A stretch of 64,000 nucleotides of DNA from Shigella phage B2. Below, piece after piece: positions 13,188 through 46,363 of the stretch (its first letter is position 1; each line of letters starts with the position of its first letter). Where the stretch lies: sequence record OM858838. The stretch is one strand, 5' to 3'. The notes beneath the pieces are model-generated. The model was not told the DNA's origin. It searched no databases and saw only the letters and a list, made by a program, of their open reading frames with translations. A program made the position numbers and the translations under genes.

Positions 13188-16100
13188 TTAGTACAAACTC
13201 ACCAGAGGGTGTACTGTAAGTCCATTCAATGCTGTACCCATCCCAACGTTATAACTCAGACTACCAGTTACTAAGTTGGCTTCAGTAATGTTAGGTAATC
13301 CAGATTCAACACTGTTACCAAACATCAGGAACAATGCTCTCAATGGATTCTCTCTAATCGTTCTCAGAATGATTTTCTGGATACGAATCTTATAGTTCAG
13401 GAACCAAGTTAAACCAATAGCATCCAGATAGAATCTGGTACGACTTGGTAACACATCATAGTTCACGAACTCATCCATCACTCTGTTAAGCGCACTGTCT
13501 TTATCCATTGGATTACTCTTACGAGTAGTCAAATGTTTATACAATGAATACTTAGCAACAAAGTCACCATACTGGATTGAACGGTTCAGTAAGAAGTACA
13601 CGTTACTATCTCTTGAAAGGGTAACTTCCTTAGCAACACGTTTAACACTATCTGGAATACCAGATGTGTATTCATCCATCTTATTAAGTAATTTATCTTT
13701 CAATGAATAGTTATCTTGCTGTCCTAAATCCTCTGCAATGGTAGGCAGTAAACCTGCTTTGATTAAATCAGCAACAGGGTTACGAGCCTGAGAATCTTTC
13801 AGTTCTGAAATCTTTCTCTGATATTCGTCAGCCATTTTAGGATTATGGTTTACAGCCAGATAGTGAGAATACTCGTTAATCAGTTTCTCATTCTTTCTGT
13901 ACTCCTCAGCAGCCAGTACAGCAGTAGACATATCCTTAGCCATAGTCACAGGGCTTACACCAACAGTAGCTAAGTGAACCATGTTAGAAACAATGTTCGC
14001 TGCTGATACAACTATTGAACGAACTACAATCCAATCCTTCATTTCCTTCACGAATTCCATCAGACCACGTTCACCAAGTCTCAGATAGCGAGCAGCATTC
14101 TTACCTAAGAAGGTTTCAGCAATGCTGGTGAAAGCTTTCTGGAACTCTTTAGAGTAACCAGTCTGACCAGTCCACATATTCAGTACAGAAGGTTCACGAT
14201 AACCAAATGCGTTATTCAGTAAATCCTTACGTACTTTAATCTTACCATCAGGCCAAATCTTCTTAGCTTGTTCCTTCATCTCAATAGGCATCAGTTCATA
14301 AATCTCTTTTAACTGATGGTCTGTAGAGTTCTCATCCATAGTAATGTATTGGTATGCCCTGCCTTCTCTGGCATCCTTCACATACATTTCATGGAGTCTC
14401 TGGAGCAACATTTCATTGTATCTGGCTGCCTGAATCTCCTCAGCAATACGACCTTCCCAAGCACCGATTACCTTAGTGAAATCATTATCTACATCCAAAT
14501 GTGCTTCTTTGTTAGCTCTAGGCATCTGATATGAGTAACCCATAATTGAACCAGCACGATTCAATACAGGTTGCATATATGAGTTATTGCCAGTAGGCAT
14601 AGGAGCATTTGCATCAAATAAATTATCAATACTGCTTCTCTTACGAGTAGATAAATTATTCTTCTCAGTAGCTCTCCATATACCCGGAGTCATAGCACCA
14701 TTCACAGTTCTACCTGTAATTGGGTTTACTCCACCTACGGTGTTTTGCAGGGTACTCATTACACCAGCAATCCAACGAGGTTCACCACCATTGTTTGAAT
14801 GGTAGTAATACATTGGTTCCTTGTTGGTATCCTGTGGGTCACGAGCAACCTGAGCACCTCTGGTATACCCTCTACGAGATAAGCTTGGTTCATCTTTAAT
14901 AGATGCAATAATCACTTTCTTGTTAGGGTCTGACAGAGTAGGAGTAAATCCTTTAATCCCAGCTAGTGCTTGGTTTTGACCAGACTTAGCTAACTCTGCA
15001 CCCTGCAAGCTTGAATAATATTTGAGAGTGAAAGTCATCCCATTATTATTTGGTTCACCTTTAGTCATCTCTCTATTAATCAAATTACTTACAGTAGCAA
15101 TATCAGTCTGAGATAACTCTTTCAGTGCTGCCAGAGAAGCCATAGTATCAACCAATTGAGTAACAGTATTAACTGTTGCATCATTAGGTCTAACTCTGCC
15201 AGTACCAATTAAACGAGCAATAGCTGCTGCGTTAGGTAACTGATAAGCCAGTGGACTAACTCCATGAACCATTTGTTTAGCTAATCCATATGCAGACTTA
15301 ATATAGAAAGGAGCATTCTGTGCACCTGCTGTCTGCAATTGAGATTCAATAGAAGCAATCTCTTTAGCCAGTTCAGTTGGATTGGTTAAGAGTTCATTCA
15401 GTCGTGCCAAGTCATATCCATTGGCAAACAGATAAGCCATATCAGTATTAGCAACTACTCTCTGAATAGCTTCTTTCTCTGTTTGGTTCAGGGATACAAA
15501 TGTACTCTCAATCATACCCGGAACCATCTCACGAATAATCTGACGTGCTCTATCAGCAGCCATATTCTTCTGAGTCAGTAAGGTATGAATGGTGCTATTG
15601 GTTTCGTTAGAACCAATGAACTCATTAATCAGTTCAGCAACAGTACCTAACTTGCCATTCTGGTGAATGGTCATATAAATGTTAGTGATAGCATCACGTA
15701 CATCCTGAGCATCTTGGTCATTGAATACTGCTGAACCAGCAGTGATACCAAATGCTACAGACTTAGGTACTTTCTTCTCTACCTTGAGTAACTGTCTACG
15801 GATAGTGTGACCAAAGGATTTGAGTTTATCCTGAGTAGTATCAGTGATTTTCTCTGCACCTCTAACCAATCTACCAAACAGATTGTCTCTGGCTTCACTA
15901 TCAACATGACTAATATTCTTAGCCAGTTTAGTTAAGCGAGAAGCAACGTCAGTATTACCCAAAGACTTAGTAGCCAAACCCGATAACCAAGTAAGAATGG
16001 CATTGGTTAAATCACCAATACGTTCTCTCAGAGTTGTAGCTGGAGTCTGTCTGGTACGCTTAACACTAATCTGAGAAAGTTTATTTCTCAGTTGTTCATT

Positions 16101-19100
16101 GGTTTCTGCCAGTGCAATGAAGTTAGCCAGTCTATTAGTACGACCAGTAGCATCAGTAGTCACAGCAGTGTTACCAAATACAGCATCATATCTTTGTTTA
16201 GCTAATGCCATTTCACTAGCTGAACGATTATTAGGGTCAGTTAAGAAGTCTTCTACTTTCAAGGTATCTCTGGCTTGTGCATACAAACTACGTGCAACCA
16301 GAACACTTGGAGAAAAGTTCTCTAAACCATACTTCATAGAAACTTGCAGCATCTTGAATACAAATGCTTCTTTCTCACTCATGTTAAAACCATGAGCAAT
16401 CAATGCATTTGGAGAGTTATCAATCTCTGGGTCGATACTATCTACCAGAAGTTTTTCCTGATAATGGTCTAAACCAGAGATTTGCTGACCAGTATTCTTA
16501 ATCACTTTAATGATATTTGACTGGAGATAATCCAGTGTATCAGTCAAATGATTCACATGGTCTTGCGTAGCTTTACCAGCATCCAGTTTATTAAACAGAG
16601 TTTCTGCATCTAATCTATTGATGTTATTAGCATTGGTTTGAGCATAGCTAGTTTCATCATTAGATTTAACCGGATTAGTAGAGTCAGTTAAAGCAACTGT
16701 ATGCCCTAACAGACGTGACCAGTAAGAGGTAACATCTGGATTAGAGCCAATAGCAAACAGGCGCTTAATAGAATCAGCTAACTGTTTGAGTACATTGGTA
16801 ACAGTCCCAGCAATAGTCTTCTGAGTCATTGCATCAATCATTCTTGGGTTAACTAATCCCCATGCAATAAACTCAGCAGTAGCTTGAGACATATTACCAG
16901 AAGCGATATGAGTATTAATCAGGTCTACTACAGCATCAGTTTCTGGATTGGTGCTTGAATATTCATTCACAAACTTATTCATCAATCCTTCAATTGAAGC
17001 TACTTCTACTCTCTGAGCAGGAGTAATTGCTTCTGGATTGCTGTAATAGTTATGAACAGTATCAGCAGTAGCAGCATGAATTAACTCATGCATTACTGTC
17101 TCAATAGACTGAGAACCAATATAGATGTTCTGGCCTTGTGTAAGACCCAAGAACGTGTCATTAAACTCAACCTTAGTATCAGGTGTCATTTCCTGTTGAA
17201 CGCCTGAGAGAGCTTCTGGTGAGCCTACATACACATTAATATCATTAGGGATAGAATTGATAATCTTATCCAGAATGAAACCAGTGATTCTATTCTGGCG
17301 AGAAGGCAGAGATTTAGCTGCCTCTCTTACAGCAGCAACCACATCACCTTTAGCCAGAACTTTAACACCTTCATGACCTTTTACAGTTCTACCATTTCTA
17401 TCCAGAGCCTCAGTCATCTGACGAGTAGGAGGAATGGTTACTCTACCTTTAGGTAGAGATACAGAATCCATAGTAGGTAATTCAGTATTGGCTACTAACT
17501 GTTCCAGAGGAGTTCTGGTATCAGTTGCTTCTCCATCAGTCTGTTTACCATTCTTAACATTGAATGGAATATTGGCACCAGTCATCTGGTTAATGGAGGT
17601 AATAGCCTCACCACCTAACAGACCTTGTTTAATAGCAGTCTGAGTAGCAGCTTCTCTCTTAAGCAGAGTAGTGAATGCTTCAACCACTTCTGGACTAGTA
17701 GGTGCATTAGTTTCATCAGCACCAATCATTTCCATAATTCCACGGAAAGACTGTTCCAGACGAACATCTGCTTCTGGACCTAATTCCTCTGCCAGATTCA
17801 CTCCATCCATTGCTTGCTCAAAACGGTTAGTGAAATCTTGCAGTAAATCGAATTCATTCCAGCTTTGCAGAACACCTTGGTTAATAGCCTGAGAACCAGT
17901 ATCCAAATGAGATACAGCATTGATGTAGCCATCGAATACGTTCAGAGCATTGTTAGGATTGATATCACGAGCAATAGCCTGCATAGCTGCTTCTACAGAC
18001 TGAACCAGTAAAGGCATTACACGAGTACCCGGTTCAGTATAAGTAGGCATATCTACACCGAAGGTAGAACGACGCATCTTACCATCCAGTTCTCTACGTC
18101 CTCTGGATTCCATTCTGTGTACGTCAGATGGAACACGCCCTTCCTCACTCAGAAGAATACCTTCATTCAGCTTTTCAACATCTAAGTTGTTAGCAGTAAA
18201 CCAAGAATTGAAGATTGGCATTGAACCAATCAAGTAATTCTTAATGTCGTTGTACTGCTGCTGAGATAGAGATTCATATTTAGATAACTTACCTTCTTTA
18301 CGAAGTTCAGTTTCTAATCTCTCTACTTCTTTATTCCAACGAGACATGAATACTTCATGCATTACAGCAGCAGCATAGACCATCATCTTGCCACGATTAA
18401 CTACAGTACCAAATTCATTAGCAATGGATTCGTTTACTGCTGCACCAATACCAATCTTGATGTTCTGAGTAATAGCTTCGATTTGTTCACCGTCAAATTC
18501 AAACATAGTCACATCCTGACCTAAGTTGATAGGTGAACCAATCTGAACCCAAGAACCATTTCTGAATACCCGAGCAGTAGTCAGTTCATTAGTTGTATTA
18601 GTTAAGTCATTGATGTGTTCAATAGCAGCATCACGTTCTTCCTGATTAGTAGCTGCATCAACTGCTCTCAATGCTTCTGTGATTGCTTCGTAATATCCAT
18701 TAGCAATACCCATAGCAATCTTTCTATTGATTGCAGTAGCACCGCCTGAATAAACAGTTACTGTTACTGGATTCTTAAGTAAACCTCGACCAATCTGAAT
18801 TGGATGGTCTACATTTTCACCTTCAACAATATTCACATCACCAATCAGTTTGGATGCAGCAAGAGTAACCCTCATCTGATTCTTCAGACGTTCAATTTCA
18901 CGCATTTCTTTTTGCTGGAATTGACGTGGTTTATTCTTCATTGCAGCAATTCGGTTAGGAATATTTCTAACTGAATCCATCATTCTATTGATGTATTGCT
19001 GACTATCAGCAGCAGCAGTCTTATACAGGTCTAAGAATCCCGGTTCTTCAGCAGCATCATTATACAGACGGTCAGACTGCCCATAGAAGAAACCGCCCTT

Positions 19101-22100
19101 CTCCAATTTATTCAGTAAGTCCTGGTTCACATCTTTCAAACCAAGCTGAACAATGGAGTTAAATGGTCCATTAGTAACACCATCAAGCTCCAGCATTACA
19201 TGAGTCTGGAATGAGGTCTTACCTTGTTCTACAGCCAGTTCATATTGAGCCTGTGCATACAGAGCATGGAGAGTCTTAGTCTTCTCCTTACCTGCTTTAA
19301 CAGCCTGCAACAAAGTCTCAGCATCACTATCACTGATGGCATCCTGATTCTCAGCAGCTTTAAGGATATCGATAGCATCTCTGAACAGACCAGTACTGAT
19401 AGCTTTATTCAGTCTATCTCTGGCTGTTTCAGAAGACAGCTTATCAACAGCAATATCTAAGCCCTGAGCAATTGCATAATCAAGGAATGCACCATGCTGA
19501 GGGTTATTCAGTTCAATGGTAGATGGTTCAACAGTAACCAGTTCACGATGTAATTTAGCTGACTGAGGATTCAGGTCACCAGAGTTAAGCATCATACGGA
19601 AGTTACTGATTACGTTATAACCAAAGTAAACAGGAGTGGTAGCCAAAGGTAATCCAGCTTCAACCATTCTAGTTAAACCATTAACCAGAGTATTTATATC
19701 TCTTTCAATGGTACGGTTAGAACCCTGAATAGATTTCAGGTGAGCACCGTTAGTATTCTCTTCTGACTGAATGCCTAACATTCTACCAATCCACTGAGTA
19801 CCTAACTTATCAAGCATCAGGTCATGCAGACCCATGTTAATGAAGTGAGGTTGTTTGCTAGCTTTGTTACGAGCAGCAAGCATCTTCTCAGGGATATCCT
19901 GACCACCACCATTCTTAACTTTAGTGCTTTGACCTTTTGGTGGAGTACCAAAGTATGCACCTGCTCTTTCTCTCTGAGGATTAGTCAGTTGACCTAACAG
20001 GTCATTAGAATTCTGCATCAATTCTACTAAACGAGTAGCAGCAGGAGACTCTTCATTCATACGAATGAATACACGAGAGTTCTTCATGTTTGAGTCATTT
20101 ACTTTAGTAGAACCAACAGCAGCTAATTCAGAGTTTTTAACAACTGATTCCTGAACCAGATTAGCATTAATCATTACGTTCAATACTTCAGATGCCATTG
20201 CTTTAGACACAGCATCACGTACAGAGATAGGTGCATTAGGGTCTGCATTGATACCTAATACTCCAAAGATTTCTCTGCTTAAATCATCAATAACATTCTG
20301 ACGGTCAGTACCAACGTTACGCAGTAAGTCAGTCTGTTCTACAGTTGGCCTAGTCTTGTTATCTAAACCAAGAATATCCATTACTGTACGGTCATCATTG
20401 AATGTAGTTTCAGATGCATTACGTACAAACCACTGCATCATTCCAGCAGTCATTGCTTCAATTACTGGCTGCGGTAAGAAGTAAACATTCTCACCATTGA
20501 TGTTTCTAACTTCATCAAAGTACTCAACAGGATAAGTTTCCCAGAAGATACGCTGACCTTCAGGAGTTAATTTACCCCAAGACTGAATCAGAGATTGTTC
20601 AATAGCAGGGACTAAACCAGCAAACTGACGAAGTACATTTACTTCTTTCTCAGTTACTTGTTCTGGTTTGATATAACCTTTAAACAGATTCTGAATCTGA
20701 GTAATAGGATTAGAACCATTAGTAAAGATGCTATTAAGTCTCCCAGAGAAATTAGAAGTTCTCAGGAAAGCTGAACGTTTACCGGTAGGTTTAAACCATT
20801 TCTTAACTTGGTTTGTAGCTTGATATTCTTTATCTACATCAGAAGTAGACTTAGCATCAGAGCGTATTGTCTCTGCTTGCAGTCCATTCAGAATGTCATA
20901 GTTAACACCTTTCTCTGAACCAAGGTCTAATTGAGACTCATCCATCAGGTCAGTTTCTACATCAGTAGGTTTTTCCTGTAACTGGATATCAGATTCTACA
21001 GTATCTGGTTTCTCAAACAGTTCACCCTGTACAGGTTCAGTACGTACAGCTTCCTCAGACGCTACTGGCTGAGTTATTTCAGGCTGTACTGGTGTTTGTA
21101 CCTCTTCCTGAGAAGTCTGCTCAGAAGTCTCTACAGGAGCTTCTACAGTAGTCTGCTGAGATACAGGTTGAGGGAAAGTATTCCTGACGTGGTTCAGGAA
21201 ATCAGTACGTGCCTGAGAAGGTGTAGCCCATACTTCACGAGTACTACGTAAACTGAAGATATGCCCATCTGGTGTCATAACGTAAGGTACATTAGTGTCA
21301 CCATAATTAAAGGAAGACAGAACATCCTGTTTACCAGTAACTGTGTCCTCTCCAGGAATAATAGTAGTTTTACCACCATTAACCGGAACGGCACGAATAC
21401 CCCCCATGTCTTTACCAATAGCAATATAGTCTTTGCCATTATAGGTAAAGTACTGACCTAACTGCATATACAGTGCCTGCTGCTGTCCAGTAAATTCAGC
21501 AGATTTCATCTCAGGACCGGCAGGGATACCACTAGAAGTAGTCTGCTGAGGAGCTGGTTTAGTTTCTTTTTTAACAGGTGCAGATTCCTGAGTCTGGTTG
21601 TTCACTTCTTCAGAAGCAACAGGAGCAGACTGTGCAGGGATATCTACAGGTTTACCATCTACCAGTTGACTGGTAAGGGTATGAGCCAGTCTTACTGCAT
21701 CAGCATCATTACGAATCTCTTGGATTAATCCTTTAGAACGTACCGGATGGTACGTCATTGGATTTCCATCGAGAGACAGGTATGGCTGACCAGTAGTAGG
21801 ATTAATTACTTCTACAGGTTGATTTCCAGTAAAGTTCTGAGCAGCTTGGTCAAAGGCAGCAGCCTTAGTTTCCATATGTTCAGCAAAGCGATTCAGGTGG
21901 TCTAACAGACCCTGAGCACGAGCAGTATCACCTAATGATAATGCACGGAAGATACCTTGCTGATATTGCTGGATACCAATAAAGCCATCCGAACCTTCAC
22001 GTACATCTTTACCTACTTGGCTCATAGCCTTACCAGTAGCAGAGATGACCTTAAGTTTATCCACATCCTGCTGACTTAAACCAAGAGTATCAGCAGAGTT

Positions 22101-24413
22101 AACTAAACGGTCAGCTACATCTGGAGTAATAGAAGATGCATCTAAGTTCATCTGAGCCAGAACAGATTTAACATTCTTCTGAACTTCAGGAGATTTGTAA
22201 GTCTCTGGAGTAATCTCAGAAGGTAATGATTCCATGACTTTAGTCATTTCATCAGGAGTCAGTTTAAATCCTTCAGCAGTAGTCTTAACTGCCTGTACAT
22301 CAGGATGATTCAGTACAGCATTAATATTATCAATAGCAGTCTGATACTGAGCTTTCTGGTCTTCTGGAGCAGCATCCATCTGTGCCTGAATCTGAGGTAA
22401 TGCTTCTTCATATGCAGAGATAACACTGTTACCAACAGTAGCTAAATCTCTACGAGAAGCTTCATCTAGATTACGTTCTTTAATGGCACGAGAGATTCTC
22501 AGAATAGAATCAGGAGAACTGATTTCTTCTTCTGGAATAGCTTTGAATACTTCTTTGGCAGCAGGTTCAGTAACAGCATCTACAGCTTTAGTAGTTACAG
22601 TTGGTTCTACTGGCGCTTCAGTATTAGTTTGTGGGGCAGCTTGTTTAACTGATTCATTGGCAGCAGATACAGTATTTCTAAAGTCTTGTGCTCTGCTTTC
22701 AGTTCTACGAGTCTGTCTTGCATCAAATGCTGTACGACCTTGTTGAACTCCTTCTTGGATTGCTCTAGGTGTCTCACTGATAGCTGAACCAACAGCACCC
22801 ATACCCGCACCAGCAATAGCAGATTCAGCAACGTTTGAACCAATACCCTCAATGAGGGATTGAGATTCGTCAGCAGAGCTACGTACCCCGAGATTAGAAG
22901 CGAACTGACCAGAAGCGCCCTGTAATGCTTCCTCAACAGTCTCTTTAGCAGCATTCTGTGAAACCCTTGAAGATGCAGCCAGTAATCCTTTACCTTCCAG
23001 TAAAGATGGAGTTAACAGACGTGATTCAAAGGGAGCAGCAACCTTACCAGTTAATGCACCTAAAGTACCTGCCACAGCAGAAGTAACATTACCTGCTTGA
23101 GTACGTACCTGACTTCTAGCCTGAGATGGTGTAGCACCTTCAGCAATAAGGTCACGATACATTGGTGATTTTTCAGCTAACTGAGCATCAGTTAATTTAT
23201 CAATCTCATCCAGTGACTGTTGAGCATTTGAACCAGCTTCTTGGAAACCAACGTAACCAATAAATGCTCTTTCAGCAGCATCCTGTAGACGCTTTCTACC
23301 AAACTCAGTAGCAGCTAATTTAGTAGCAAAGTCCTCACCATACTCTTGAGCCAATTGCTTCAAAGCACCACGAGTAGCTAACTTACCTACGATACCACCA
23401 GTCAGTAAGTCTGGAGCAGATTCAGCAATCAGAGTAGTTAATGCACCTGGTGAAGTACCATACTGTTCAGCAGTATTAACGAACTGACGTAACTGTTCCT
23501 TAGCACCAGCTACTAATGGATTATCACCTTTAGCAATATCAGCAGCTTCTCTTGCTGCACCGCCTTGTTCAAAGCGTTGCTTATTGGCTTCGATAACAGA
23601 TTGTTCATATTGAACAGCAGGAGAATACTGAGAACGCTGTTCATCAACGAATTCTTTTAATGGCTTATCAATACCTGCTTGGTCTAACAGAGTAGGTTGC
23701 CCTACTTGGTCTTCTTGACCAGTAACATTAGCAATTAAATCCTGAGCATTCTGTAATGCTAAGTTACCTAAACTAGTAGCAAATCTTGCAGTATTACCTG
23801 CCCATACTTGGGCAGCATTACCAATGTCTGAAAGTTCCATAGGAGCATTTTCAAACTGGTCTGTATTAGCTTGAGCAATATTTAATGCAAGTTTGTCTCT
23901 AGCCGCTTGAGGACCATACTTCTGCTGTAAAGCAGAGATAGGCATATCTTTTAAATCAGCAAGATATTGGTCATTTGGATTAGTCTGTGCAGCTTGATTA
24001 GGAGCTACATAGTTAGGATGACTTGGGTCAAAAGGACCAGTACCACCAAATTCAGGAGATACTTGAGGATTAATCATCCTACGATAGAAAGGCTTAGTTG
24101 CTGCAATAGCATCATAGTTAGCCTGCATATCAGGAGTGGTTGGTTGAGTCTCAGGAATATTAAAATTATTAATATTCTGACCAGTCAACATTGCCTGCAT
24201 CTGTTCACGAGTATATTTAGGACCAGATTCAGCCAGACGAATAGCTTCCTGTCCTCTCTGATATTCAGGAGAACCTACAGGGAAATCTGTTTCTACTCCG
24301 GGTACTGGAGCACCCATCTCTACTTGTTTCTGCTGAGTGGCTTGATTTAGTTGTTGTGTTTTTTGTAAATCAACTCCAGCTAATTGTTGTTCTTTTTCAA
24401 ATCCGGTAGCCAT
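13188..24413 (-). CDS. virion RNA polymerase (N4 gp50-like vRNAP)
   Basis: 3741-aa ORF, the N4-like hallmark; T7-like motif B candidate IGRGLLKNPVTVTVYSGG; RBS GAGGA before start. Confidence 0.8.
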   Translation of the reverse strand: MATGFEKEQQLAGVDLQKTQQLNQATQQKQVEMGAPVPGVETDFPVGSPEYQRGQEAIRLAESGPKYTREQMQAMLTGQNINNFNIPETQPTTPDMQANYDAIAATKPFYRRMINPQVSPEFGGTGPFDPSHPNYVAPNQAAQTNPNDQYLADLKDMPISALQQKYGPQAARDKLALNIAQANTDQFENAPMELSDIGNAAQVWAGNTARFATSLGNLALQNAQDLIANVTGQEDQVGQPTLLDQAGIDKPLKEFVDEQRSQYSPAVQYEQSVIEANKQRFEQGGAAREAADIAKGDNPLVAGAKEQLRQFVNTAEQYGTSPGALTTLIAESAPDLLTGGIVGKLATRGALKQLAQEYGEDFATKLAATEFGRKRLQDAAERAFIGYVGFQEAGSNAQQSLDEIDKLTDAQLAEKSPMYRDLIAEGATPSQARSQVRTQAGNVTSAVAGTLGALTGKVAAPFESRLLTPSLLEGKGLLAASSRVSQNAAKETVEEALQGASGQFASNLGVRSSADESQSLIEGIGSNVAESAIAGAGMGAVGSAISETPRAIQEGVQQGRTAFDARQTRRTESRAQDFRNTVSAANESVKQAAPQTNTEAPVEPTVTTKAVDAVTEPAAKEVFKAIPEEEISSPDSILRISRAIKERNLDEASRRDLATVGNSVISAYEEALPQIQAQMDAAPEDQKAQYQTAIDNINAVLNHPDVQAVKTTAEGFKLTPDEMTKVMESLPSEITPETYKSPEVQKNVKSVLAQMNLDASSITPDVADRLVNSADTLGLSQQDVDKLKVISATGKAMSQVGKDVREGSDGFIGIQQYQQGIFRALSLGDTARAQGLLDHLNRFAEHMETKAAAFDQAAQNFTGNQPVEVINPTTGQPYLSLDGNPMTYHPVRSKGLIQEIRNDADAVRLAHTLTSQLVDGKPVDIPAQSAPVASEEVNNQTQESAPVKKETKPAPQQTTSSGIPAGPEMKSAEFTGQQQALYMQLGQYFTYNGKDYIAIGKDMGGIRAVPVNGGKTTIIPGEDTVTGKQDVLSSFNYGDTNVPYVMTPDGHIFSLRSTREVWATPSQARTDFLNHVRNTFPQPVSQQTTVEAPVETSEQTSQEEVQTPVQPEITQPVASEEAVRTEPVQGELFEKPDTVESDIQLQEKPTDVETDLMDESQLDLGSEKGVNYDILNGLQAETIRSDAKSTSDVDKEYQATNQVKKWFKPTGKRSAFLRTSNFSGRLNSIFTNGSNPITQIQNLFKGYIKPEQVTEKEVNVLRQFAGLVPAIEQSLIQSWGKLTPEGQRIFWETYPVEYFDEVRNINGENVYFLPQPVIEAMTAGMMQWFVRNASETTFNDDRTVMDILGLDNKTRPTVEQTDLLRNVGTDRQNVIDDLSREIFGVLGINADPNAPISVRDAVSKAMASEVLNVMINANLVQESVVKNSELAAVGSTKVNDSNMKNSRVFIRMNEESPAATRLVELMQNSNDLLGQLTNPQRERAGAYFGTPPKGQSTKVKNGGGQDIPEKMLAARNKASKQPHFINMGLHDLMLDKLGTQWIGRMLGIQSEENTNGAHLKSIQGSNRTIERDINTLVNGLTRMVEAGLPLATTPVYFGYNVISNFRMMLNSGDLNPQSAKLHRELVTVEPSTIELNNPQHGAFLDYAIAQGLDIAVDKLSSETARDRLNKAISTGLFRDAIDILKAAENQDAISDSDAETLLQAVKAGKEKTKTLHALYAQAQYELAVEQGKTSFQTHVMLELDGVTNGPFNSIVQLGLKDVNQDLLNKLEKGGFFYGQSDRLYNDAAEEPGFLDLYKTAAADSQQYINRMMDSVRNIPNRIAAMKNKPRQFQQKEMREIERLKNQMRVTLAASKLIGDVNIVEGENVDHPIQIGRGLLKNPVTVTVYSGGATAINRKIAMGIANGYYEAITEALRAVDAATNQEERDAAIEHINDLTNTTNELTTARVFRNGSWVQIGSPINLGQDVTMFEFDGEQIEAITQNIKIGIGAAVNESIANEFGTVVNRGKMMVYAAAVMHEVFMSRWNKEVERLETELRKEGKLSKYESLSQQQYNDIKNYLIGSMPIFNSWFTANNLDVEKLNEGILLSEEGRVPSDVHRMESRGRRELDGKMRRSTFGVDMPTYTEPGTRVMPLLVQSVEAAMQAIARDINPNNALNVFDGYINAVSHLDTGSQAINQGVLQSWNEFDLLQDFTNRFEQAMDGVNLAEELGPEADVRLEQSFRGIMEMIGADETNAPTSPEVVEAFTTLLKREAATQTAIKQGLLGGEAITSINQMTGANIPFNVKNGKQTDGEATDTRTPLEQLVANTELPTMDSVSLPKGRVTIPPTRQMTEALDRNGRTVKGHEGVKVLAKGDVVAAVREAAKSLPSRQNRITGFILDKIINSIPNDINVYVGSPEALSGVQQEMTPDTKVEFNDTFLGLTQGQNIYIGSQSIETVMHELIHAATADTVHNYYSNPEAITPAQRVEVASIEGLMNKFVNEYSSTNPETDAVVDLINTHIASGNMSQATAEFIAWGLVNPRMIDAMTQKTIAGTVTNVLKQLADSIKRLFAIGSNPDVTSYWSRLLGHTVALTDSTNPVKSNDETSYAQTNANNINRLDAETLFNKLDAGKATQDHVNHLTDTLDYLQSNIIKVIKNTGQQISGLDHYQEKLLVDSIDPEIDNSPNALIAHGFNMSEKEAFVFKMLQVSMKYGLENFSPSVLVARSLYAQARDTLKVEDFLTDPNNRSASEMALAKQRYDAVFGNTAVTTDATGRTNRLANFIALAETNEQLRNKLSQISVKRTRQTPATTLRERIGDLTNAILTWLSGLATKSLGNTDVASRLTKLAKNISHVDSEARDNLFGRLVRGAEKITDTTQDKLKSFGHTIRRQLLKVEKKVPKSVAFGITAGSAVFNDQDAQDVRDAITNIYMTIHQNGKLGTVAELINEFIGSNETNSTIHTLLTQKNMAADRARQIIREMVPGMIESTFVSLNQTEKEAIQRVVANTDMAYLFANGYDLARLNELLTNPTELAKEIASIESQLQTAGAQNAPFYIKSAYGLAKQMVHGVSPLAYQLPNAAAIARLIGTGRVRPNDATVNTVTQLVDTMASLAALKELSQTDIATVSNLINREMTKGEPNNNGMTFTLKYYSSLQGAELAKSGQNQALAGIKGFTPTLSDPNKKVIIASIKDEPSLSRRGYTRGAQVARDPQDTNKEPMYYYHSNNGGEPRWIAGVMSTLQNTVGGVNPITGRTVNGAMTPGIWRATEKNNLSTRKRSSIDNLFDANAPMPTGNNSYMQPVLNRAGSIMGYSYQMPRANKEAHLDVDNDFTKVIGAWEGRIAEEIQAARYNEMLLQRLHEMYVKDAREGRAYQYITMDENSTDHQLKEIYELMPIEMKEQAKKIWPDGKIKVRKDLLNNAFGYREPSVLNMWTGQTGYSKEFQKAFTSIAETFLGKNAARYLRLGERGLMEFVKEMKDWIVVRSIVVSAANIVSNMVHLATVGVSPVTMAKDMSTAVLAAEEYRKNEKLINEYSHYLAVNHNPKMADEYQRKISELKDSQARNPVADLIKAGLLPTIAEDLGQQDNYSLKDKLLNKMDEYTSGIPDSVKRVAKEVTLSRDSNVYFLLNRSIQYGDFVAKYSLYKHLTTRKSNPMDKDSALNRVMDEFVNYDVLPSRTRFYLDAIGLTWFLNYKIRIQKIILRTIRENPLRALFLMFGNSVESGLPNITEANLVTGSLSYNVGMGTALNGLTVHPLVSLY

Positions 24414-36890: not shown

Positions 36891-37190
36891 ATGGCATACT
36901 CAGATGTTGATGCAATTCTTGCTGATGGTAAACAAGCTGTAGCTGTTAAACATGGTGGTGGTTTAGTTGTTGTAGGTGAACTTGGTGCTCAAGTACTTGC
37001 AGCTAAAGACGTAAGTGAATTACCAGATGGTGTAGGTGGTACTGCTCCAGGTGCTGCTACTACTACTACTGCTGGTGTAGTTAAACAATCAACTACTCAA
37101 GCAGCTTCAGTAGCTACTGATGTAGCAGGTGTAGTTACTGATTTGAATGCTTTAATTACTAAGCTAAAAGCTGCTGGTATTATGGCTTAA
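36891..37190 (+). CDS. MAYSD-family protein, paralog A
   Basis: Shares N-terminal ~45 aa (MAYSD.D...DGK...GGG..V...L.AKD..ELP) and upstream leader with 37268-37903. Confidence 0.5.
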   Translation: MAYSDVDAILADGKQAVAVKHGGGLVVVGELGAQVLAAKDVSELPDGVGGTAPGAATTTTAGVVKQSTTQAASVATDVAGVVTDLNALITKLKAAGIMA

Positions 37191-37267: not shown

Positions 37268-37903
37268 ATGGCTTATTCAGATTTGGATGATGTATTTGAA
37301 GATGGTAAAGATATCATTCCAAAACAAGGTGGAGGAATTGCTGTAATTAGTCCTTTTGGAGAAGAAATACTTTCTGCTAAAGATGCTACAGAACTTCCAT
37401 TTGTTGTTACTCCTCCAGAGACACCTGAAGATATCTTCTTATTAGATATCTTTAACTGGACTGGTAATTTATCTATTCCTACAAGTGCTACTACATTCAC
37501 TAACTTCTTTGCATTATCAGGTATAACCAAGAATCCTATTGGTACTGCTGGGTTGACTATTACTTCTGGTAATCTCCTATTCCCATTGAGAACCAAACAT
37601 AGTCAAGTAATCTTCTCCATTCGTGTTTCTGGAAGTGTTGCTGGTGCAGCAGGTACTGATAGAGAATGGAAGATTCAAACCAGAAGACCTAATGGAGATA
37701 TTGTTGGTTCTGATTTTGCTGTTAAAACTGTAGCTGATACAGATATCAGTAACCGTGATACTACTTTATCAAGTTATGCACTAGCCAATACTGACCCATT
37801 CTTTACTCAGGGTATTCAGTTAGGTCTATTTAATAACTCGGGTCAAACTATCACTCTTACTTCAGTATCTGTTCGAATACTACAAACAATTAATCCAAGC
37901 TAA
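37268..37903 (+). CDS. MAYSD-family protein, paralog B
   Basis: Same N-terminal module as 36891-37190 with a longer, unrelated C-terminal domain. Confidence 0.5.
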   Translation: MAYSDLDDVFEDGKDIIPKQGGGIAVISPFGEEILSAKDATELPFVVTPPETPEDIFLLDIFNWTGNLSIPTSATTFTNFFALSGITKNPIGTAGLTITSGNLLFPLRTKHSQVIFSIRVSGSVAGAAGTDREWKIQTRRPNGDIVGSDFAVKTVADTDISNRDTTLSSYALANTDPFFTQGIQLGLFNNSGQTITLTSVSVRILQTINPS

Positions 37904-37908
37904 ATATA

Positions 37909-37930
37909 AGGCCCTACGGGGCCTTTTCTT
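37909..37930 (+). terminator. rho-independent terminator
   Basis: aggccc-tacg-gggcct followed by T-run. Confidence 0.65.
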
Positions 37931-37943
37931 ATTGAGGTAATAC

Positions 37944-38264
37944 ATGAGAGTCAAAACATATCTAAGACGCCAGAGAGAAGGCTCTATACCTGTTAAATCA
38001 AGTAATGATGATATAGGTATACAAGAGTATCCTGACGTACTCTTAACCATGTACATCAACACACTTGAAAATGGAGATTCTCCGAGAGCCTTACGTGAAG
38101 GTATTAAGGAAATTATGAAACGAGTTCAATCTCCTAGAGTTAAGTCCATCCTCCAAGATATCAAACGAGCTACATCACCAGTAGGCAGATTACATTTTTA
38201 CTATGGTGCTTTGGAACGTGACTTAGAAGAGATTAGAGACATATCAAAAGAAAGCCCCCAATAA
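37944..38264 (+). CDS. hypothetical protein
   Basis: 106-aa ORF. Confidence 0.4.
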   Translation: MRVKTYLRRQREGSIPVKSSNDDIGIQEYPDVLLTMYINTLENGDSPRALREGIKEIMKRVQSPRVKSILQDIKRATSPVGRLHFYYGALERDLEEIRDISKESPQ

Positions 38265-38275
38265 GGGGGCTATTT
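38253..38275. terminator. bidirectional terminator
   Basis: gccccc-aataa-gggggc between convergent genes; T-rich run on - strand side. Confidence 0.55.
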
Positions 38276-38277
38276 AC

Positions 38278-40611
38278 TTAGATGGATGCTTCAGAGTTAC
38301 CAAACATATCCCAAGCTTCTAACTCAATATTCCAGTATGAAGTTGGAGGAGTAGAAGGCCACGTTATATTAATATCTAAAACAAGTCCGCCATTCCCTGC
38401 ACCTACACCAATAGTGACATAAGAAGCCATATCAATATCTCGTATGGTTTCTAATGGCATATTAGGGCCATTAGCTCCAGCAACTTTAAGGTCTTTCATA
38501 CTATAGTGGGCCGCAGTTGCTGTAATAGCTGTTGGTTGGTTACCTGTTGCATATGTAGTCTTAAGGATTTTACCAGTGAATACATACCCACCACCAGTAG
38601 TCTTGATTAATAAGACCTCTAAATAATCCCCACTACTGTTACTAATTTTAAGTACGGAATGCCCACAGTTATAGAAATTAGTACCTAAATCTCCAGAAAT
38701 AGATGGAGTAGTAGGAAGCATACTTTGTGGCATTGGTACTTGAAAATTAACTAATGCAGTAGCCGTAGGCAAAGTTGCTTGGTTATATGCCTGCGGAATT
38801 TTTTTAGAATAAACAGCACGATGACCTTTATCAAATCTAGCCCAATTACGTGCTTGAACAGACATACCTACAGGCACAGGTTGTACAGTCAAAGAGTTAA
38901 GATAAAAATCTCCTCCAGTACCCTGTAAATTGGTAAAAAATGTAAGAGTTTTCCAACCACGACCCAGAATTCTACCAACAAATTTCCTATCTGCTGAGTA
39001 TGTAGTACTCAGGTCAACAATGGCATTATTCGCTGCTTGAGGTGAGTTAGAAAAATTAATGGACTGGTTATTAGCGAAATCATAATAATCTTGTGCGCCA
39101 TTATTCCACCAACTAGGAGCATCAACAAGAACGTTTATTGGACCAGCACCACTACCATGTACAAAAATATGTGCTGCTTCTGCATCTAAATAAAAACTGA
39201 ATGTTGCAATAGATGCTACATTAGCAAGCATACCCCCCACAACTTTAGTACGGGTATACGCACCATCAGAACGACCTAAGTTAATATTACCCGTAGCATC
39301 GCAATAGCCAATGCTATCATCTAAACGACCACACCAAGTATTAATCTCATTAGTGAGTGGACGGTAGGTTGGTAACAAACCACCAGCCATAAACATAGAT
39401 GCTAGCATCTGACCATGAATCGCATAACCCATGGAGTTAAAGTGACCACCATCAGATTGCACTGCACCATTATGACGATAGTACTGAACTTCATCAGCAT
39501 TGAAATGAGCACAACCATATGTGTCAGCCATCATACGCATACGTTTTGCCCACAGGTTAGCAACAACACCGCCAGAACCCTGACCACCAGTAGAGCAAGT
39601 CTGGACAACTACACCCATACCCCAATCAATGAAGCGACGGATGAGTTTTTCCATATACTCCATGTAAATATCTTCAGTAGTTCCAGCAACACCACCAGCA
39701 TCGTTCAAACCTAACATTAAAATAACAACATCACAGTTAGGATTGGATTGCCATGATGGTTCATTGTATGACTGAATTGCTGTATGTCCTGAAATAGCAC
39801 GATATACACCAGTAACACTACAACCTGACTGTTCTGGTAAGTAAGCCATAAAACGTTGAGGATAAGTCATACTAGCATGAGTAGCCCAATCCCCGTTGTT
39901 AGCAGGAACACGGTCAGTAGAAGTAGTATCGTAACCAGCAGTCATTGAGTCACCCTGGAACAATACTTTGATTGAACCACGACTATGAACTTGCTTATCT
40001 ACCCAAGCTAATTTCTGGATATTACGTGCACGGTAATTTGCTGAATCATTAGCAATAATCCACTGTTGTACAGTTTTACCATCAGACGTACCAATCTGGG
40101 ATGCACCACCAGTAGTAGCTAATTCATCTCGTAACTCTTCACCAGTAACTTCAATCCATGCTGATGCACTAATACCTCCACTTGAAGCAGGAGTTGAACC
40201 AGCAGGAACTACTTTAGGTACTGCCCCCGCCCAACGATATTGAGCGCCATTAGAATGGGTAAGAATTTCATTCTTAACCTGAATGGTTGCACCAGAAGTA
40301 AAGTCACCAGGAATAGTCACATACTCTTTACGCAAAACAGCTACTGCTCCAAGGTCTACAGAACCTTGTGAATGTACAAGTACAGCAGCAGTACTAAGAC
40401 TGATGGCAGTAGTACCAGCAGGAATACCAATAGGTAAGGAGTAAGCTCTTTGCGTGGTCTTGTCATAAATTACTTTATATCCAGAGATATCAACACCAAC
40501 AGAGAAATAAACAACCTCAGACTGTTTAACTCCGAAGTGTCTAGCTACTGCTTGTTTATTGGTTAGGATTCCAGCAGAACCTTTACCACCTTGACTAAAT
40601 AACTGATTCAT
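38278..40611 (-). CDS. tailspike / tail protein with SGNH (GDSL) esterase domain
   Basis: SGNH blocks VLFQGDSMTAGY, GLNDAG, DGGHFN. Confidence 0.6.
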   Translation of the reverse strand: MNQLFSQGGKGSAGILTNKQAVARHFGVKQSEVVYFSVGVDISGYKVIYDKTTQRAYSLPIGIPAGTTAISLSTAAVLVHSQGSVDLGAVAVLRKEYVTIPGDFTSGATIQVKNEILTHSNGAQYRWAGAVPKVVPAGSTPASSGGISASAWIEVTGEELRDELATTGGASQIGTSDGKTVQQWIIANDSANYRARNIQKLAWVDKQVHSRGSIKVLFQGDSMTAGYDTTSTDRVPANNGDWATHASMTYPQRFMAYLPEQSGCSVTGVYRAISGHTAIQSYNEPSWQSNPNCDVVILMLGLNDAGGVAGTTEDIYMEYMEKLIRRFIDWGMGVVVQTCSTGGQGSGGVVANLWAKRMRMMADTYGCAHFNADEVQYYRHNGAVQSDGGHFNSMGYAIHGQMLASMFMAGGLLPTYRPLTNEINTWCGRLDDSIGYCDATGNINLGRSDGAYTRTKVVGGMLANVASIATFSFYLDAEAAHIFVHGSGAGPINVLVDAPSWWNNGAQDYYDFANNQSINFSNSPQAANNAIVDLSTTYSADRKFVGRILGRGWKTLTFFTNLQGTGGDFYLNSLTVQPVPVGMSVQARNWARFDKGHRAVYSKKIPQAYNQATLPTATALVNFQVPMPQSMLPTTPSISGDLGTNFYNCGHSVLKISNSSGDYLEVLLIKTTGGGYVFTGKILKTTYATGNQPTAITATAAHYSMKDLKVAGANGPNMPLETIRDIDMASYVTIGVGAGNGGLVLDINITWPSTPPTSYWNIELEAWDMFGNSEASI

Positions 40612-40629
40612 AAATACCTCTATTTTTTC

Positions 40630-41862
40630 TTATACAACAGCACCAGTTGAGTCTACCCATGCAGTTCCATTAAACCAAATAGGTTTACCTAACGTAGTAT
40701 CAAAATGTTGTGTACCAGTTAATACTCCAATAGGTCTTTGTGCAGTAGTACCACTCAGTCCTAACGTAACAATAGGAGTCAAGGTTACTACAATATTACC
40801 CGGCAGATAAGTTAACTGACCATTCACTACACTTTGAATATATACGTTGTTAGGTACACTAGAAGGAATCCAATAGTAAACCTGAGACACAATATCATAC
40901 AGGATACGCTTACCATTTAGAGTCTCTACAGTGTTATCACTTTTGATAACCTCTGAGTCCTTCATGTTAGTTGCTCTAGCAATCTCATACAGGCTTCTAT
41001 CTGGAGATTCTAATGTAACTAACTCACCTCCAAGCTGAACTACTAATCTATCATTAGTAGATAATGGTTCAGTCAGTAAGATACGTTTGTTATCTTGGTC
41101 TACAGTATAAGATTGAGTTGATAATCCACCTTGATATCTCAATCCATTCTTAAAGATTGCTGGTACAGTTTGGAAGGTATATGGAATAACAATTACCTGT
41201 TCTCCGCCAACTGCTGCACCATTGTTATAAATCCAGTTAATAACAGTCCAACTATCAATGTTTGGATTATCAGGTACAGCAGGATTACCTGAAAGCATCA
41301 GAACAACTTCATCACCTTGCTCTAATGGCTGAGCTAAAGTAACAGTCAGATTAACAGAGTTAAAAGTAAATCCTCTGCCTACCTGTTGACGGAAACCTTC
41401 CACATAAATTTCTGGAACACCAATAGTGTAATCAGGAACTACAATAGTAGTTTCTCCACCAGCAGCAGAACCATTATTAAATACAAATGGGATATATGCA
41501 CCAGTGCCTGTAGCAGCACCGCTATTAGATGAGCCAACAACTACCCAGCTACCAGTAGCAGTAGGGTCACTTGGTAATACTCCAGTACGGTCACCTTCTA
41601 CATAGAGGTAATCAGTATAGATTCTGACACCTGTAGGGGTAGAAGAATACACACGAGTATACTTAGCAGTTGTAGGTAATTCCTGTAACTCTGTAACTGA
41701 GTCAACTGTAATCAATACACCATAATCATTTAAAAAATTATAGATGAACTGAATCTCACCCAGATTATCATATACAGTTTTAACTACATCGTAAGCAGTA
41801 CCAATGAATTTCTCCACCATACCTGCTTGATTACCACAGCACGTATTTGTAGTTCGAATCAT
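40630..41862 (-). CDS. tail/structural protein with internal tandem domain duplication
   Basis: Two ~70-aa repeats (PFVFNNGSAAGGETTIVVPDYTIGVPEIYVEGFRQ / NWIYNNGAAVGGEQVIVIPYTFQTVPAIFKNGLRYQ). Confidence 0.45.
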   Translation of the reverse strand: MIRTTNTCCGNQAGMVEKFIGTAYDVVKTVYDNLGEIQFIYNFLNDYGVLITVDSVTELQELPTTAKYTRVYSSTPTGVRIYTDYLYVEGDRTGVLPSDPTATGSWVVVGSSNSGAATGTGAYIPFVFNNGSAAGGETTIVVPDYTIGVPEIYVEGFRQQVGRGFTFNSVNLTVTLAQPLEQGDEVVLMLSGNPAVPDNPNIDSWTVINWIYNNGAAVGGEQVIVIPYTFQTVPAIFKNGLRYQGGLSTQSYTVDQDNKRILLTEPLSTNDRLVVQLGGELVTLESPDRSLYEIARATNMKDSEVIKSDNTVETLNGKRILYDIVSQVYYWIPSSVPNNVYIQSVVNGQLTYLPGNIVVTLTPIVTLGLSGTTAQRPIGVLTGTQHFDTTLGKPIWFNGTAWVDSTGAVV

Positions 41863-41863
41863 C

Positions 41864-42568
41864 TTATACCCATCCTCTCATTTCTGGTTTAACGTTAGTT
41901 TGTGCAATGTGAGCATTGTCCAAATCTAGATTCTCAATCTTCGTACACTCTGCTTCAAATCTCTGACTCCATTCAACCCCTTTAGCTGCTGTCTCTGGAT
42001 TAGGTGAATTGGAATAAAGCTGTGAAGCAATGTAATACGTCAGAGCCTTTTCATGACTAGCTGGGATACGTACTTCTGTATTCAAGTCTGTAGTCGTCAG
42101 AGCAATCTTAGGATGATTTGCCCTATAAGTCACAAACAATGCATTAGTTTCAATTGGATAAACAATCTGAATGCAGTCAAATGAAGGGGTCACAATAGAA
42201 CCACAGCAAGGTTCATTGTTTAAATACAACGGACAACCACATTCATCAAAGACTCTCTCTACTCTAATAACATCATCTAAGAATCTTTCAGTTGGTGAAT
42301 CCATTAAGTACTTATACTTTTCTGTAGAAGTAGTATTCATCTGAGCAAACTCACTGCGCAGATAATACTTAGAAATTTGCTCATATTGCTGAATGATTAC
42401 TTCTTTTTCTAACAGAGGAAATCTGGCATGAAGGTTAGTTAAGCCAGCATTCAATTGAGCAATAACTTTAGGATAATCTTGAGTACGAATACCCTGTCCA
42501 TCATTACCAGTTCGAATGAGGCTTAACTCACCTACAGATAACATCTGAAATAATTCTGACAATTTCAT
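41864..42568 (-). CDS. structural protein, unknown role
   Basis: 234-aa ORF between terminase and tail genes. Confidence 0.4.
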   Translation of the reverse strand: MKLSELFQMLSVGELSLIRTGNDGQGIRTQDYPKVIAQLNAGLTNLHARFPLLEKEVIIQQYEQISKYYLRSEFAQMNTTSTEKYKYLMDSPTERFLDDVIRVERVFDECGCPLYLNNEPCCGSIVTPSFDCIQIVYPIETNALFVTYRANHPKIALTTTDLNTEVRIPASHEKALTYYIASQLYSNSPNPETAAKGVEWSQRFEAECTKIENLDLDNAHIAQTNVKPEMRGWV

Positions 42569-42611
42569 AATGTAGCTCCGAGAGTTAACGTCACCACATT
42601 ATAAGCCAGAG

Positions 42612-44901: not shown

Positions 44902-44934
44902 AGTTACTCCGAAGGGGTTTACAAATAGATTATC

Positions 44935-44950
44935 AGTACTATATAGTACT
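44935..44950. promoter_or_regulatory. perfect 16-bp palindrome upstream of late operon
   Basis: agtactatatagtact, ~35 nt upstream of the - strand start at 44901. Confidence 0.3.
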
Positions 44951-45075
44951 TTTCACAGAAAGTAGAAGATTCTTAAGTGAGAGGTGTATTAGAACGTAAC
45001 GGACTCATTATCCAATCTACGTTCAGTTGTTAAGATTGCAGTCTTAATAACATTTGATGATACATCTCTCTCTTA

Positions 45076-45106: not shown

Positions 45107-45178
45107 GGTTCTATGGTCCAGTGGAAAGGATATTCCCCTGTCACGGGAAAGGCCCGAGTTCAATTCTCGGTAGAACCG
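45107..45178 (+). tRNA. tRNA-Asp (anticodon GTC)
   Basis: Hand-folded cloverleaf: acceptor ggttcta/tagaacc, D gtcc/ggat, anticodon stem ttccc/gggaa loop ctGTCac, T ccgag-ttcaatt-ctcgg, CCA encoded. Confidence 0.8.
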
Positions 45179-45185
45179 CCAATTA

Positions 45186-45260
45186 CAGGATATAGCTCAA
45201 GTTGGTTAGAGCACTCGGCTCATAACCGAGAGTGTCCAGGTTCGAAACCGGGTGGAACCA
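45186..45260 (+). tRNA. tRNA-Met-like element (anticodon CAT), acceptor stem unresolved
   Basis: Good D arm (gctc/gagc) and anticodon arm (ctcgg-ctCATaa-ccgag); the 5' end does not pair with the 3' tggaacc-a-cca in my fold. Confidence 0.35.
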
Positions 45261-45270
45261 CCAAATAATG

Positions 45271-45355
45271 AAGAGAGTCGTATAGCGGCCCAATACGCCA
45301 CCCGAACGTTACGACTAGTACGGAGAACACGCAGGTTCGAATCCTGCCTCTCTTC
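45271..45355 (+). tRNA. tRNA-like element without canonical anticodon arm (possible pseudo-tRNA)
   Basis: Perfect 7-bp acceptor aagagag/ctctctt, D arm gtat/atac, T arm gcagg-ttcgaat-cctgc; the 33-nt middle has no 5-bp/7-nt-loop hairpin. Confidence 0.3.
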
Positions 45356-45361
45356 ACAAAT

Positions 45362-45435
45362 TGTCTCATAGCTCAGTAGGTCAGAGCGTTCCCCTGATAA
45401 GGGAAAGGTCACTAGTTCGATTCCAATTGAGACAA
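45362..45435 (+). tRNA. tRNA-Ile (anticodon GAT)
   Basis: Acceptor tgtctca/tgagaca + a + CCA, D gctc/gagc, anticodon ttccc-ctGATaa-gggaa; T stem has two mismatches. Confidence 0.6.
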
Positions 45436-45579
45436 CCATCCAATAGATTACAGTTCGTATCTCTTAGGGGAATACACTTGTAATTGCGGCCCGATAGGAA
45501 AGGGTAATTTCTCGACGATGGGAGTAGACCATTGACTGTTTGGAATAGACAACTGACGCTGTGAACGAGAACAGGAACA

Positions 45580-45666
45580 AGATGAGTCGTATAATAGGCA
45601 AATACAATATTCATGTTTCGCTATAGGCATGGAGAAGGAACGTGAGTTCGAGTCTCACCTCATCAA
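45580..45666 (+). tRNA. tRNA-like element, paralog of 45271-45355
   Basis: Shares agaNgag-tc-gtat...atac 5' half and a ttcgagt T arm (gtgag/ctcac); 1:72 mismatch and no canonical anticodon arm. Confidence 0.25.
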
Positions 45667-45766
45667 TAGTTCTTATCAGGGATTACTTACTACTATATAT
45701 CATACATTACCTCGCCTGGTGTGTTGGTGTTACCTCGGTAGATAAGTAATCCACTAATAAGAATTT

Positions 45767-45849
45767 GGAAGATTCCGCTCAGTGGTGGGCAATCCGGTTT
45801 GAACCCGGAGGTGCTGGTAACGGTAGGGGTTCGACTCCTCAATCTTCCG
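45767..45849 (+). tRNA. tRNA-Ser (anticodon TGA), type II
   Basis: Acceptor ggaagat/atcttcc + g + CCA, anticodon tccgg-ttTGAac-ccgga, long variable arm. Confidence 0.7.
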
Positions 45850-45858
45850 CCAATATTT

Positions 45859-45931
45859 GATAGGATAGCTAACTCGGTAAAGCGGCAGACTGTTAATCTG
45901 CGACATTAGGGTTCAAATCCCTATCCCATCG
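45859..45931 (+). tRNA. tRNA-Asn (anticodon GTT)
   Basis: Anticodon gcaga-ctGTTaa-tctgc, T taggg-ttcaaat-cccta, acceptor with one A.C mismatch, CCA encoded. Confidence 0.75.
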
Positions 45932-46099
45932 CCAAACTTGCAGGTAACTCTGCAATCCGTGACCAGTCGGTATGTTTATTAGTATGTAAAAGGCTGGGCT
46001 TCCTGCCTCTCATAGCCATACTCTTAAATGAATAACTGGTAGTCCAGCCAAGCGCACGAAGATGGGGACCCTCACCATCGGACAAAACGAGGGTACTAA

Positions 46100-46173
46100 G
46101 CATCCTTAGCTCAGTTGGATAGAGCAGTAGCCTTCTAAGCTATTGGTCACTGGTTCGAATCCAGTAGGGTGTA
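46100..46173 (+). tRNA. tRNA-Arg (anticodon TCT)
   Basis: D gctc/gagc, anticodon gtagc-ctTCTaa-gctat, T actgg-ttcgaat-ccagt, acceptor with two G.U pairs, CCA encoded. Confidence 0.8.
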
Positions 46174-46177
46174 CCAA

Positions 46178-46250
46178 GCTCACTAAGTTCATATGGGTGA
46201 ACGCCTGCCTTGTAAGCAGGATGAACGCGGTTCGATTCCGTGGGTGAGCA
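46178..46250 (+). tRNA. tRNA-Thr (anticodon TGT)
   Basis: Acceptor gctcact/ggtgagc, D gttc/gaac, anticodon cctgc-ctTGTaa-gcagg, T cgcgg-ttcgatt-ccgtg, CCA encoded; unusual A at position 8. Confidence 0.75.
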
Positions 46251-46255
46251 CCAAT

Positions 46256-46338
46256 GGGAGTATGGTGAAATCGGTAGACACAAGGGATTTAAAATCCCTC
46301 GGCTTATAGCTGTACGAGTTCGAGTCTCGTTACTCCCA
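46256..46338 (+). tRNA. tRNA-Leu (anticodon TAA), type II
   Basis: Acceptor gggagta/tactccc + a + CCA, anticodon aggga-ttTAAaa-tccct, long variable arm, T acgag-ttcgagt-ctcgt. Confidence 0.85.
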
Positions 46339-46363
46339 CCAAATTAATACAAGGAAAATCCCA

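Follow-up and report, generated by a model that had tools for sequence, protein, structure and literature searches.

The tailspike gp63.1 of phage G7C removes acetyl groups from O-antigen but does not depolymerise it, and the phage needs this activity to infect (review PMC10743462). A second spike, gp48 of Shigella phage B2, was described in 2024 (Subramanian et al., Sci Adv, PMC11654681); its identity and structure, its complex with gp49, the esterase activity on 4-nitrophenyl acetate, the requirement for decorated O-antigen and the reversible interaction with lipopolysaccharide (LPS) have been established since then. Here we analyzed a window of 64,000 nucleotides from Shigella phage B2 (GenBank OM858838), in which an open reading frame (ORF) on the minus strand, at 38278..40611, encodes a 777-residue protein that an earlier note had described from the letters of the sequence as a tailspike with an SGNH esterase domain. 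This ORF is gp48. Our overall reading, to which we assign a probability of about 0.9, is that a side tailspike made of two proteins has gp48 as its distal, enzymatic subunit and acts on O-acetylated O-antigen.

The B2 spike and its host have been characterized in some detail (PMC11654681). Both gp48 (83 kDa) and gp49 (44 kDa) were found in virions by mass spectrometry, and they co-purify. Cryo-electron microscopy of the gp48/gp49 complex at 2.3 Å showed homotrimers of a shape that the authors likened to that of G7C gp63.1; in the tail map, N-terminal tailspike residues 10-74 were modelled. The purified complex hydrolyses 4-nitrophenyl acetate, an artificial substrate, rapidly and in a dose-dependent manner, and the control spike of phage HRP29 is inactive. 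B2 forms plaques only on S. flexneri CFS100. This strain is of serotype 2a2, whose O-antigen is decorated by O-acetylation of N-acetylglucosamine (GlcNAc), glucose on rhamnose (Rha) I and O-acetylation of Rha III. The earlier note had predicted a host with an O-acetylated O-antigen or capsule, and the sole known host fits that description. Mutants in waaC, waaL and waaG, as well as an unmodified serotype Y strain, resist B2. Deletion of oacB causes a partial drop in infection and deletion of gtr has a mild effect; a gtr- oacD double mutant is fully resistant, and efforts to obtain a mutant in oacD alone failed. These mutant data confound O-acetylation with glucosylation. Purified LPS does not inactivate B2 virions; binding was therefore considered reversible, and a secondary receptor was presumed (PMC11654681).

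The correspondence between the ORF and the published protein is exact. The ORF begins with ATG and has its stop codon at 38278-38280, and its product is 100% identical (777/777 residues) to chain A of PDB 9d84, an entry titled "Shigella flexneri bacteriophage B2 Gp48 and Gp49". PMC11654681 gives four cloning primers for gp48 and gp49, and the phage-specific part of each was compared with the window. Those for gp48 match exactly at 40586-40608 and 38278-38301, and those for gp49 at 41825-41859 and 40630-40658, in each case at both ends of the ORF. Gene numbers and sizes in the window also agree with that paper for gp45 (a 99-residue decoration protein), gp50 (a 234-residue adaptor) and gp39 (a 706-residue portal), and the RNA polymerase of ~411 kDa listed there as gp30 agrees in size with a gene in the window. 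There is no sequence difference between the published gp48 and the one found here, and the neighbors from gp45 to gp50 agree as well. The ORF at 38278..40611 is gp48, labelled "tail fiber" in the table of PMC11654681, and belongs to an N4-like podovirus (Schitoviridae, Humphriesvirinae, Ithacavirus-like). The coordinates, the length and the three motifs (GDSMTAGY, GLNDAG and DGGHFN) in the earlier note proved correct. A plus-strand ORF of 99 residues lying within gp48 (39415..39714) was treated as a chance antisense ORF. Given what had been published, the analysis adds little beyond confirmation, and serves mainly as a positive control for the inference of function, phage family and host property from raw sequence.

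The terms "SGNH" and "catalytic" are absent from PMC11654681, in which the esterase activity is not assigned to individual residues. In gp48, GDSMTAGY is located at residue 220, the Block II motif AISGH at residue 272, GLNDAG at residue 301 and DGGHFN at residue 387. The Pfam family Lipase_GDSL_2 spans residues 220-398 (E 1.2e-10, 42.6 bits versus a cut-off of 32.9), and Lipase_GDSL is likewise above its cut-off; the motifs are not chance matches. The SGNH/GDSL hydrolase domain occupies residues 205-410, encoded at 39382..39999 on the minus strand. It includes G220-D221-S222 of Block I (S222 codon at 39946-39948), G275 of Block II (codon 39787-39789), N303 of Block III (codon 39703-39705), and D387 and H390 of Block V (codons 39451-39453 and 39442-39444), all on the minus strand.

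These residues agree with those of characterized enzymes. The GDS of Block I aligns with that of 1yzf and 4tx1, SGNH enzymes of known structure, the GLND of Block III with GAND of 1yzf, and D387-G-G-H390 of Block V with DGLH of 1yzf. In a 43-sequence alignment of homologues, with identities down to 24%, G220, D221, S222, G275, N303, D304, D387 and H390 are invariant; the loss of the catalytic Ser or His on proper alignment, named in the earlier note as evidence that would speak against an esterase, is therefore not what the family displays. The SGNH domain has the three-layer alpha/beta/alpha, flavodoxin-like fold of the SGNH/GDSL superfamily, and its fold neighbors include carbohydrate acetyl-esterases, TesA (a thioesterase/lysophospholipase), acyloxyacyl hydrolase, PatB and OatA. 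Judged by its motifs, gp48 carries Blocks I, II, III and V of the superfamily. By analogy, S222 would be the nucleophile, G275 and N303 would make up the oxyanion hole, and the general base pair would be H390 and D387.

Thus, the assignment as a tailspike with an SGNH esterase domain is borne out by Pfam, by fold searches and by identity to 9d84, and the predicted esterase function by the published hydrolysis of 4-nitrophenyl acetate. No hydrolase domain was detected in gp49 by Pfam, and the esterase activity of the complex can therefore be attributed to gp48. Naming the SGNH family and the probable catalytic residues S222, G275, N303, D387 and H390 is an addition to PMC11654681, and makes these residues explicit for mutagenesis.

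The SGNH domain is flanked by two other modules. Residues 1-190 (40042..40611, minus strand) form an N-terminal anchor and neck module of the G7C gp63.1/CBA120 TSP1 type: Tail_spike_N (PF18668) is found at residues 94-156 (E 1.9e-19), and residues 1-184 match CBA120 TSP1 (4oj5) with an E value of 2e-73. Because of its homology to G7C, and because gp48 co-purifies with His-tagged gp49, we infer that this module docks the spike onto gp49. The C-terminal half, residues 411-777 (38281..39381, minus strand), is all-beta and resembles beta-sandwich carbohydrate-binding modules. It is probably the part that binds O-antigen and determines specificity, with sugar binding suggested by this resemblance. 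As a trimeric virion spike that combines an anchor with an SGNH domain, gp48 resembles the O-antigen-deacetylating tailspikes and is a candidate for this functional class.

The partner protein gp49 (410 residues; 40630..41862, minus strand) is itself attached to the virion and is recognized from its primers and from its homology to G7C gp66 and Moo19 gp82. Over its residues 5-361, it shares 56% identity with the N-terminal part of G7C gp66 (residues 14-374) and 49% identity with residues 22-377 of Moo19 gp82. In Moo19 (PDB 9d80/9d81), the same cassette is part of a single protein of 1086 residues, in which a gp49-like anchor and a gp48-like body are fused; residues 4-777 of gp48 align to residues 291-1083 of gp82. 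Since both B2 proteins align to the one Moo19 protein, the content of a single Moo19 gene corresponds to two genes in B2. Residues 291-377 of gp82 are matched both by gp49 (~273-361) and by gp48 (~4-90), and gp49 294-337 and gp48 22-64 align weakly with each other (E 0.001). The shared match and the weak alignment therefore indicate that a small domain is duplicated on both sides of the split, and this junction domain is likely a recombination joint for module exchange.

From these comparisons, gp49 is an anchor and branching part of the gp66 type that has no distal enzymatic body of its own, a difference from G7C gp66, which has a distal receptor-binding body. The last ~42 residues of gp49 (369-410, …RPIGVLTGTQHFDTTLGKPIWFNGTAWVDSTGAVV) have no counterpart at that position in G7C gp66 or Moo19 gp82. 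They match phrog_20787, a family of 67-residue stand-alone proteins annotated as "virion structural protein" (E 8e-13), and seem to be a short capping module gained in place of the lost gp66-type body. The complex is carried by the tail adaptor gp50 (234 residues; 41864..42568, minus strand), identified from Table 1 of PMC11654681 (27 kDa) and from a match to phrog_2125, "virion structural protein" (E 2.4e-83); the match to the Pfam family SU10_adaptor is weak. In the published structure, the adaptor was modelled at residues 2-233 of 234 (PMC11654681).

The relationship to G7C is close in one part of the protein and distant in the rest. G7C gp63.1 (PDB 4qnl, with gp66 as its partner) shares the architecture and the anchor, and over residues 1-164, gp48 has 73% identity with gp63.1 (residues 1-163). 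In contrast, the esterase and C-terminal parts of gp63.1 are of a different lineage, with identities of 15-23% (23% for the SGNH part, E 5e-4). A Pfam search of gp48 at E values up to 0.1 found none of Gp63_3rd_G7C, G7C_GBD and G7C_C, whereas gp63.1 itself matches them with E values of 8e-41 to 3e-126. Given the absence of these G7C-specific domains, gp48 is not a member of the gp63.1 family beyond its N-terminal anchor. Full-length orthology of the two proteins was considered and ruled out, as close kinship is confined to residues 1-164. The kinship to G7C-like N4 relatives proposed in the earlier note therefore stands for the phage, a member of Schitoviridae, and for the G7C-like anchor, but not for the esterase cassette, which is not that of gp63.1. 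The virions differ as well, since those of G7C are inactivated by LPS and those of B2 are not (PMC11654681).

These data can be combined into a mechanism. A gp49 trimer fixed to the tail would bear a gp48 trimer docked via its ~190-residue N-terminal domain, and the distal part of gp48 would bind the decorated serotype 2a2 O-antigen. S222, H390 and D387 would then hydrolyse O-acetyl esters, most likely leaving the backbone uncut, by analogy with G7C gp63.1. Much as has been proposed for G7C (PMC10743462), the spike may thereby move reversibly, and possibly processively, across the O-antigen layer toward a presumed secondary receptor. Conservation of the catalytic residues is a direct observation of the present study. 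The natural substrate is probably an O-acetyl group of the O-antigen, and the group on GlcNAc, that on Rha III or both may be the target; gp48 catalysis is presumably required for infection.

Three other explanations of the SGNH domain were weighed against this scheme. The same binding and catalysis could serve release rather than entry: gp48 would bind via its C-terminal modules, and the esterase would chiefly destroy the receptor, freeing virions from LPS debris, outer-membrane vesicles and infected cells. This proposal draws on the reversible LPS interaction, which triggers no genome release, on the carbohydrate-binding-like C-terminal modules, which could bind independently, and on the G7C precedent of an esterase that leaves the backbone uncut. 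However, enzymatic activity is reported to be essential for G7C infection (PMC10743462), and the family-wide invariance of the SGNH residues on every scaffold type fits a core entry function at least equally well. We regard a role chiefly in release as rather unlikely.

Far less probable is a different substrate. The domain could act on a lipid or other acyl ester of the envelope (lipid A chains or phospholipids), like a GDSL lipase or acyloxyacyl hydrolase, given that the matching Pfam families are named for lipases and acylhydrolases and that TesA and acyloxyacyl hydrolase are among its structural neighbors. Yet carbohydrate acetyl-esterases are equally near or nearer in fold, it is an acetate ester that is hydrolysed, and infection needs the O-antigen and its decorations, beyond the core or lipid A. 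Moreover, the domain lies distally on a long spike, beside carbohydrate-binding-like modules, and its nearest characterized phage analogue is an O-antigen deacetylase. It is also conceivable that the domain transfers acyl groups, or that it is a structural module of no catalytic relevance, and that 4-nitrophenyl acetate is hydrolysed in a side reaction; the SGNH fold is shared by some O-acetyltransferases, and PatB and OatA are found among the fold neighbors. This idea is hardly credible for an extracellular virion protein, which has no acetyl donor. An inert domain would also sit poorly with the full catalytic set being invariant in the family, and a side reaction with hydrolysis that is rapid and dose-dependent while the negative-control spike is inactive. 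None of the three is favored over deacetylation of the O-antigen.

The specificity of the spike can be approached through a close relative. Along 97% of its length, a 20-kb query around gp48 shows 97% DNA identity to Salmonella phage UTK0001, an Ithacavirus and the nearest genome in the collection; the UTK0001 authors independently name Shigella phage B2 as the closest relative of their phage. The UTK0001 tail fibre (L001:6001-8334) is 97.6% identical to gp48, has the same length of 777 residues and lies in the same gene order. Of the 777 positions, 19 distinguish the two proteins. Most of these (16) fall at positions 443-690, in the C-terminal half, where differences at the DNA level also peak; the only differences within the SGNH domain are V269I and V349I, both conservative. 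The S. Anatum strain from which UTK0001 was isolated is the only one on which it forms plaques (UTK0001 paper), and it differs from B2 both in the genus and in the O-antigen of its host.

The O-unit of group E1 Salmonella bears an O-acetylated galactose (Gal) (PMC3715488). As a tentative proposal, for which we claim only limited confidence, this spike lineage may read a minimal epitope shared by chemically different O-antigens, or a few C-terminal substitutions may retarget it between genera. A candidate for the shared epitope would be what we take to be an O-acetylated hexose carrying alpha-L-Rha-(1->3), presumably O-acetylated GlcNAc in S. flexneri and O-acetylated Gal in Salmonella group E1. 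The pair of B2 and UTK0001 constitutes a natural experiment on specificity, and either explanation, if true, would be new and would offer a manageable system for studying how deacetylating spikes jump from one host genus to another.

The esterase cassette extends well beyond these two phages. After the published gp48 itself, its nearest known counterparts are Moo19 gp82 and SFP21A gp09. In SFP21A gp09 (PDB 9lna) and in the tail fibres of Dev2, SH3-SH5, SFPH2 and GW1, the same cassette is joined to a T7 tail-fibre N-terminus (PF03906); our literature search found no paper describing PDB 9lna or the SFP21A structure. A coverage of at least 80% of gp48 was found for 19 records of the annotated phage collection; these include T7-like phages, SFP21A among them, that infect Cronobacter, Citrobacter, Shigella and Morganella and have ~51% identity to it.

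Altogether, no fewer than four types of N-terminal anchor are joined to the SGNH and C-terminal cassette in phages and prophages of Enterobacterales: the TSP1/gp66-N type (PF18668), the P22 head-binding domain (PF09008), the T7 tail-fibre N-terminus (PF03906) and the tail-collar domain (PF12571). Its distribution across N4-, T7-, P22- and CBA120-type anchors in many of these phages and prophages shows that it is a common mobile receptor-binding module. The modular origin and wider family of gp48 indicated by such comparisons are further additions to PMC11654681.

The P22 type of anchor is represented by Salmonella phage g341c, a P22-like phage whose host is S. Anatum. Its tailspike is 31% identical to gp48 over gp48 residues 158-695 and carries a P22 head-binding anchor. 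The gene for this SGNH-family tailspike (L005:1162-3540) directly adjoins an O-antigen acetylase gene (3626-4605), and this one temperate phage thus carries an esterase spike right beside a conversion gene for acetyl modification. The tailspike of epsilon15 was also considered as a relative, prompted by the title of a 2026 preprint on a protruding esterase domain, but BLASTP of gp48 against epsilon15 gp20 gave no match (best E 6.5). The spike of g341c is different from that of epsilon15.

A leftward block in the window ends with gp48; it consists, in order, of a 231-residue ORF, the large terminase (541 residues), the 234-residue adaptor, the 410-residue gp49 and the 777-residue gp48. The order of terminase, adaptor and spike genes is the same as in G7C and Moo19. 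A giant virion RNA polymerase is a hallmark of N4-like phages, and in the window an ORF of 3741 residues at 13188..24413 encodes this enzyme. The giant RNA polymerase gene and the synteny of the packaging/tail block place the phage in Schitoviridae (N4-like).

Between the convergent genes gp47 (plus strand) and gp48 (minus strand), a GC-rich hairpin (AGCCCCC-loop-GGGGGCT) is present at 38253..38271. It has a T-rich tail on both strands and, as a consensus match from a pattern scan, is a putative bidirectional terminator. A scan of 37700-45200 for sigma-70-like promoters found 8 sites, fewer than in shuffled sequence (22.5); because the phage encodes its own RNA polymerases, such a scan is uninformative here.

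Two plus-strand genes on the other side of this hairpin are related to each other. The first ~45 residues of gp45 (36891..37190, 99 residues) and of a 211-residue ORF (37268..37903) are 49% identical (E 1e-14). For the longer ORF, gp46 by position, the sole match is a PHROG without known function, and the virion mass-spectrometry table of PMC11654681 does not list the protein. From its sequence, it may be a second capsid-anchored protein that shares the N-terminal attachment segment of gp45.

Downstream of the packaging genes, seven tRNA genes (Asp, Ile, Ser, Asn, Arg-TCT, Thr and Leu-TAA) are located at 45107..46341 on the plus strand. The UTK0001 genome has 11 tRNAs (UTK0001 paper), and the set in the annotated stretch that was compared is partly different, with Pro, Tyr, Gln and Met tRNAs that are absent from the B2 cluster.

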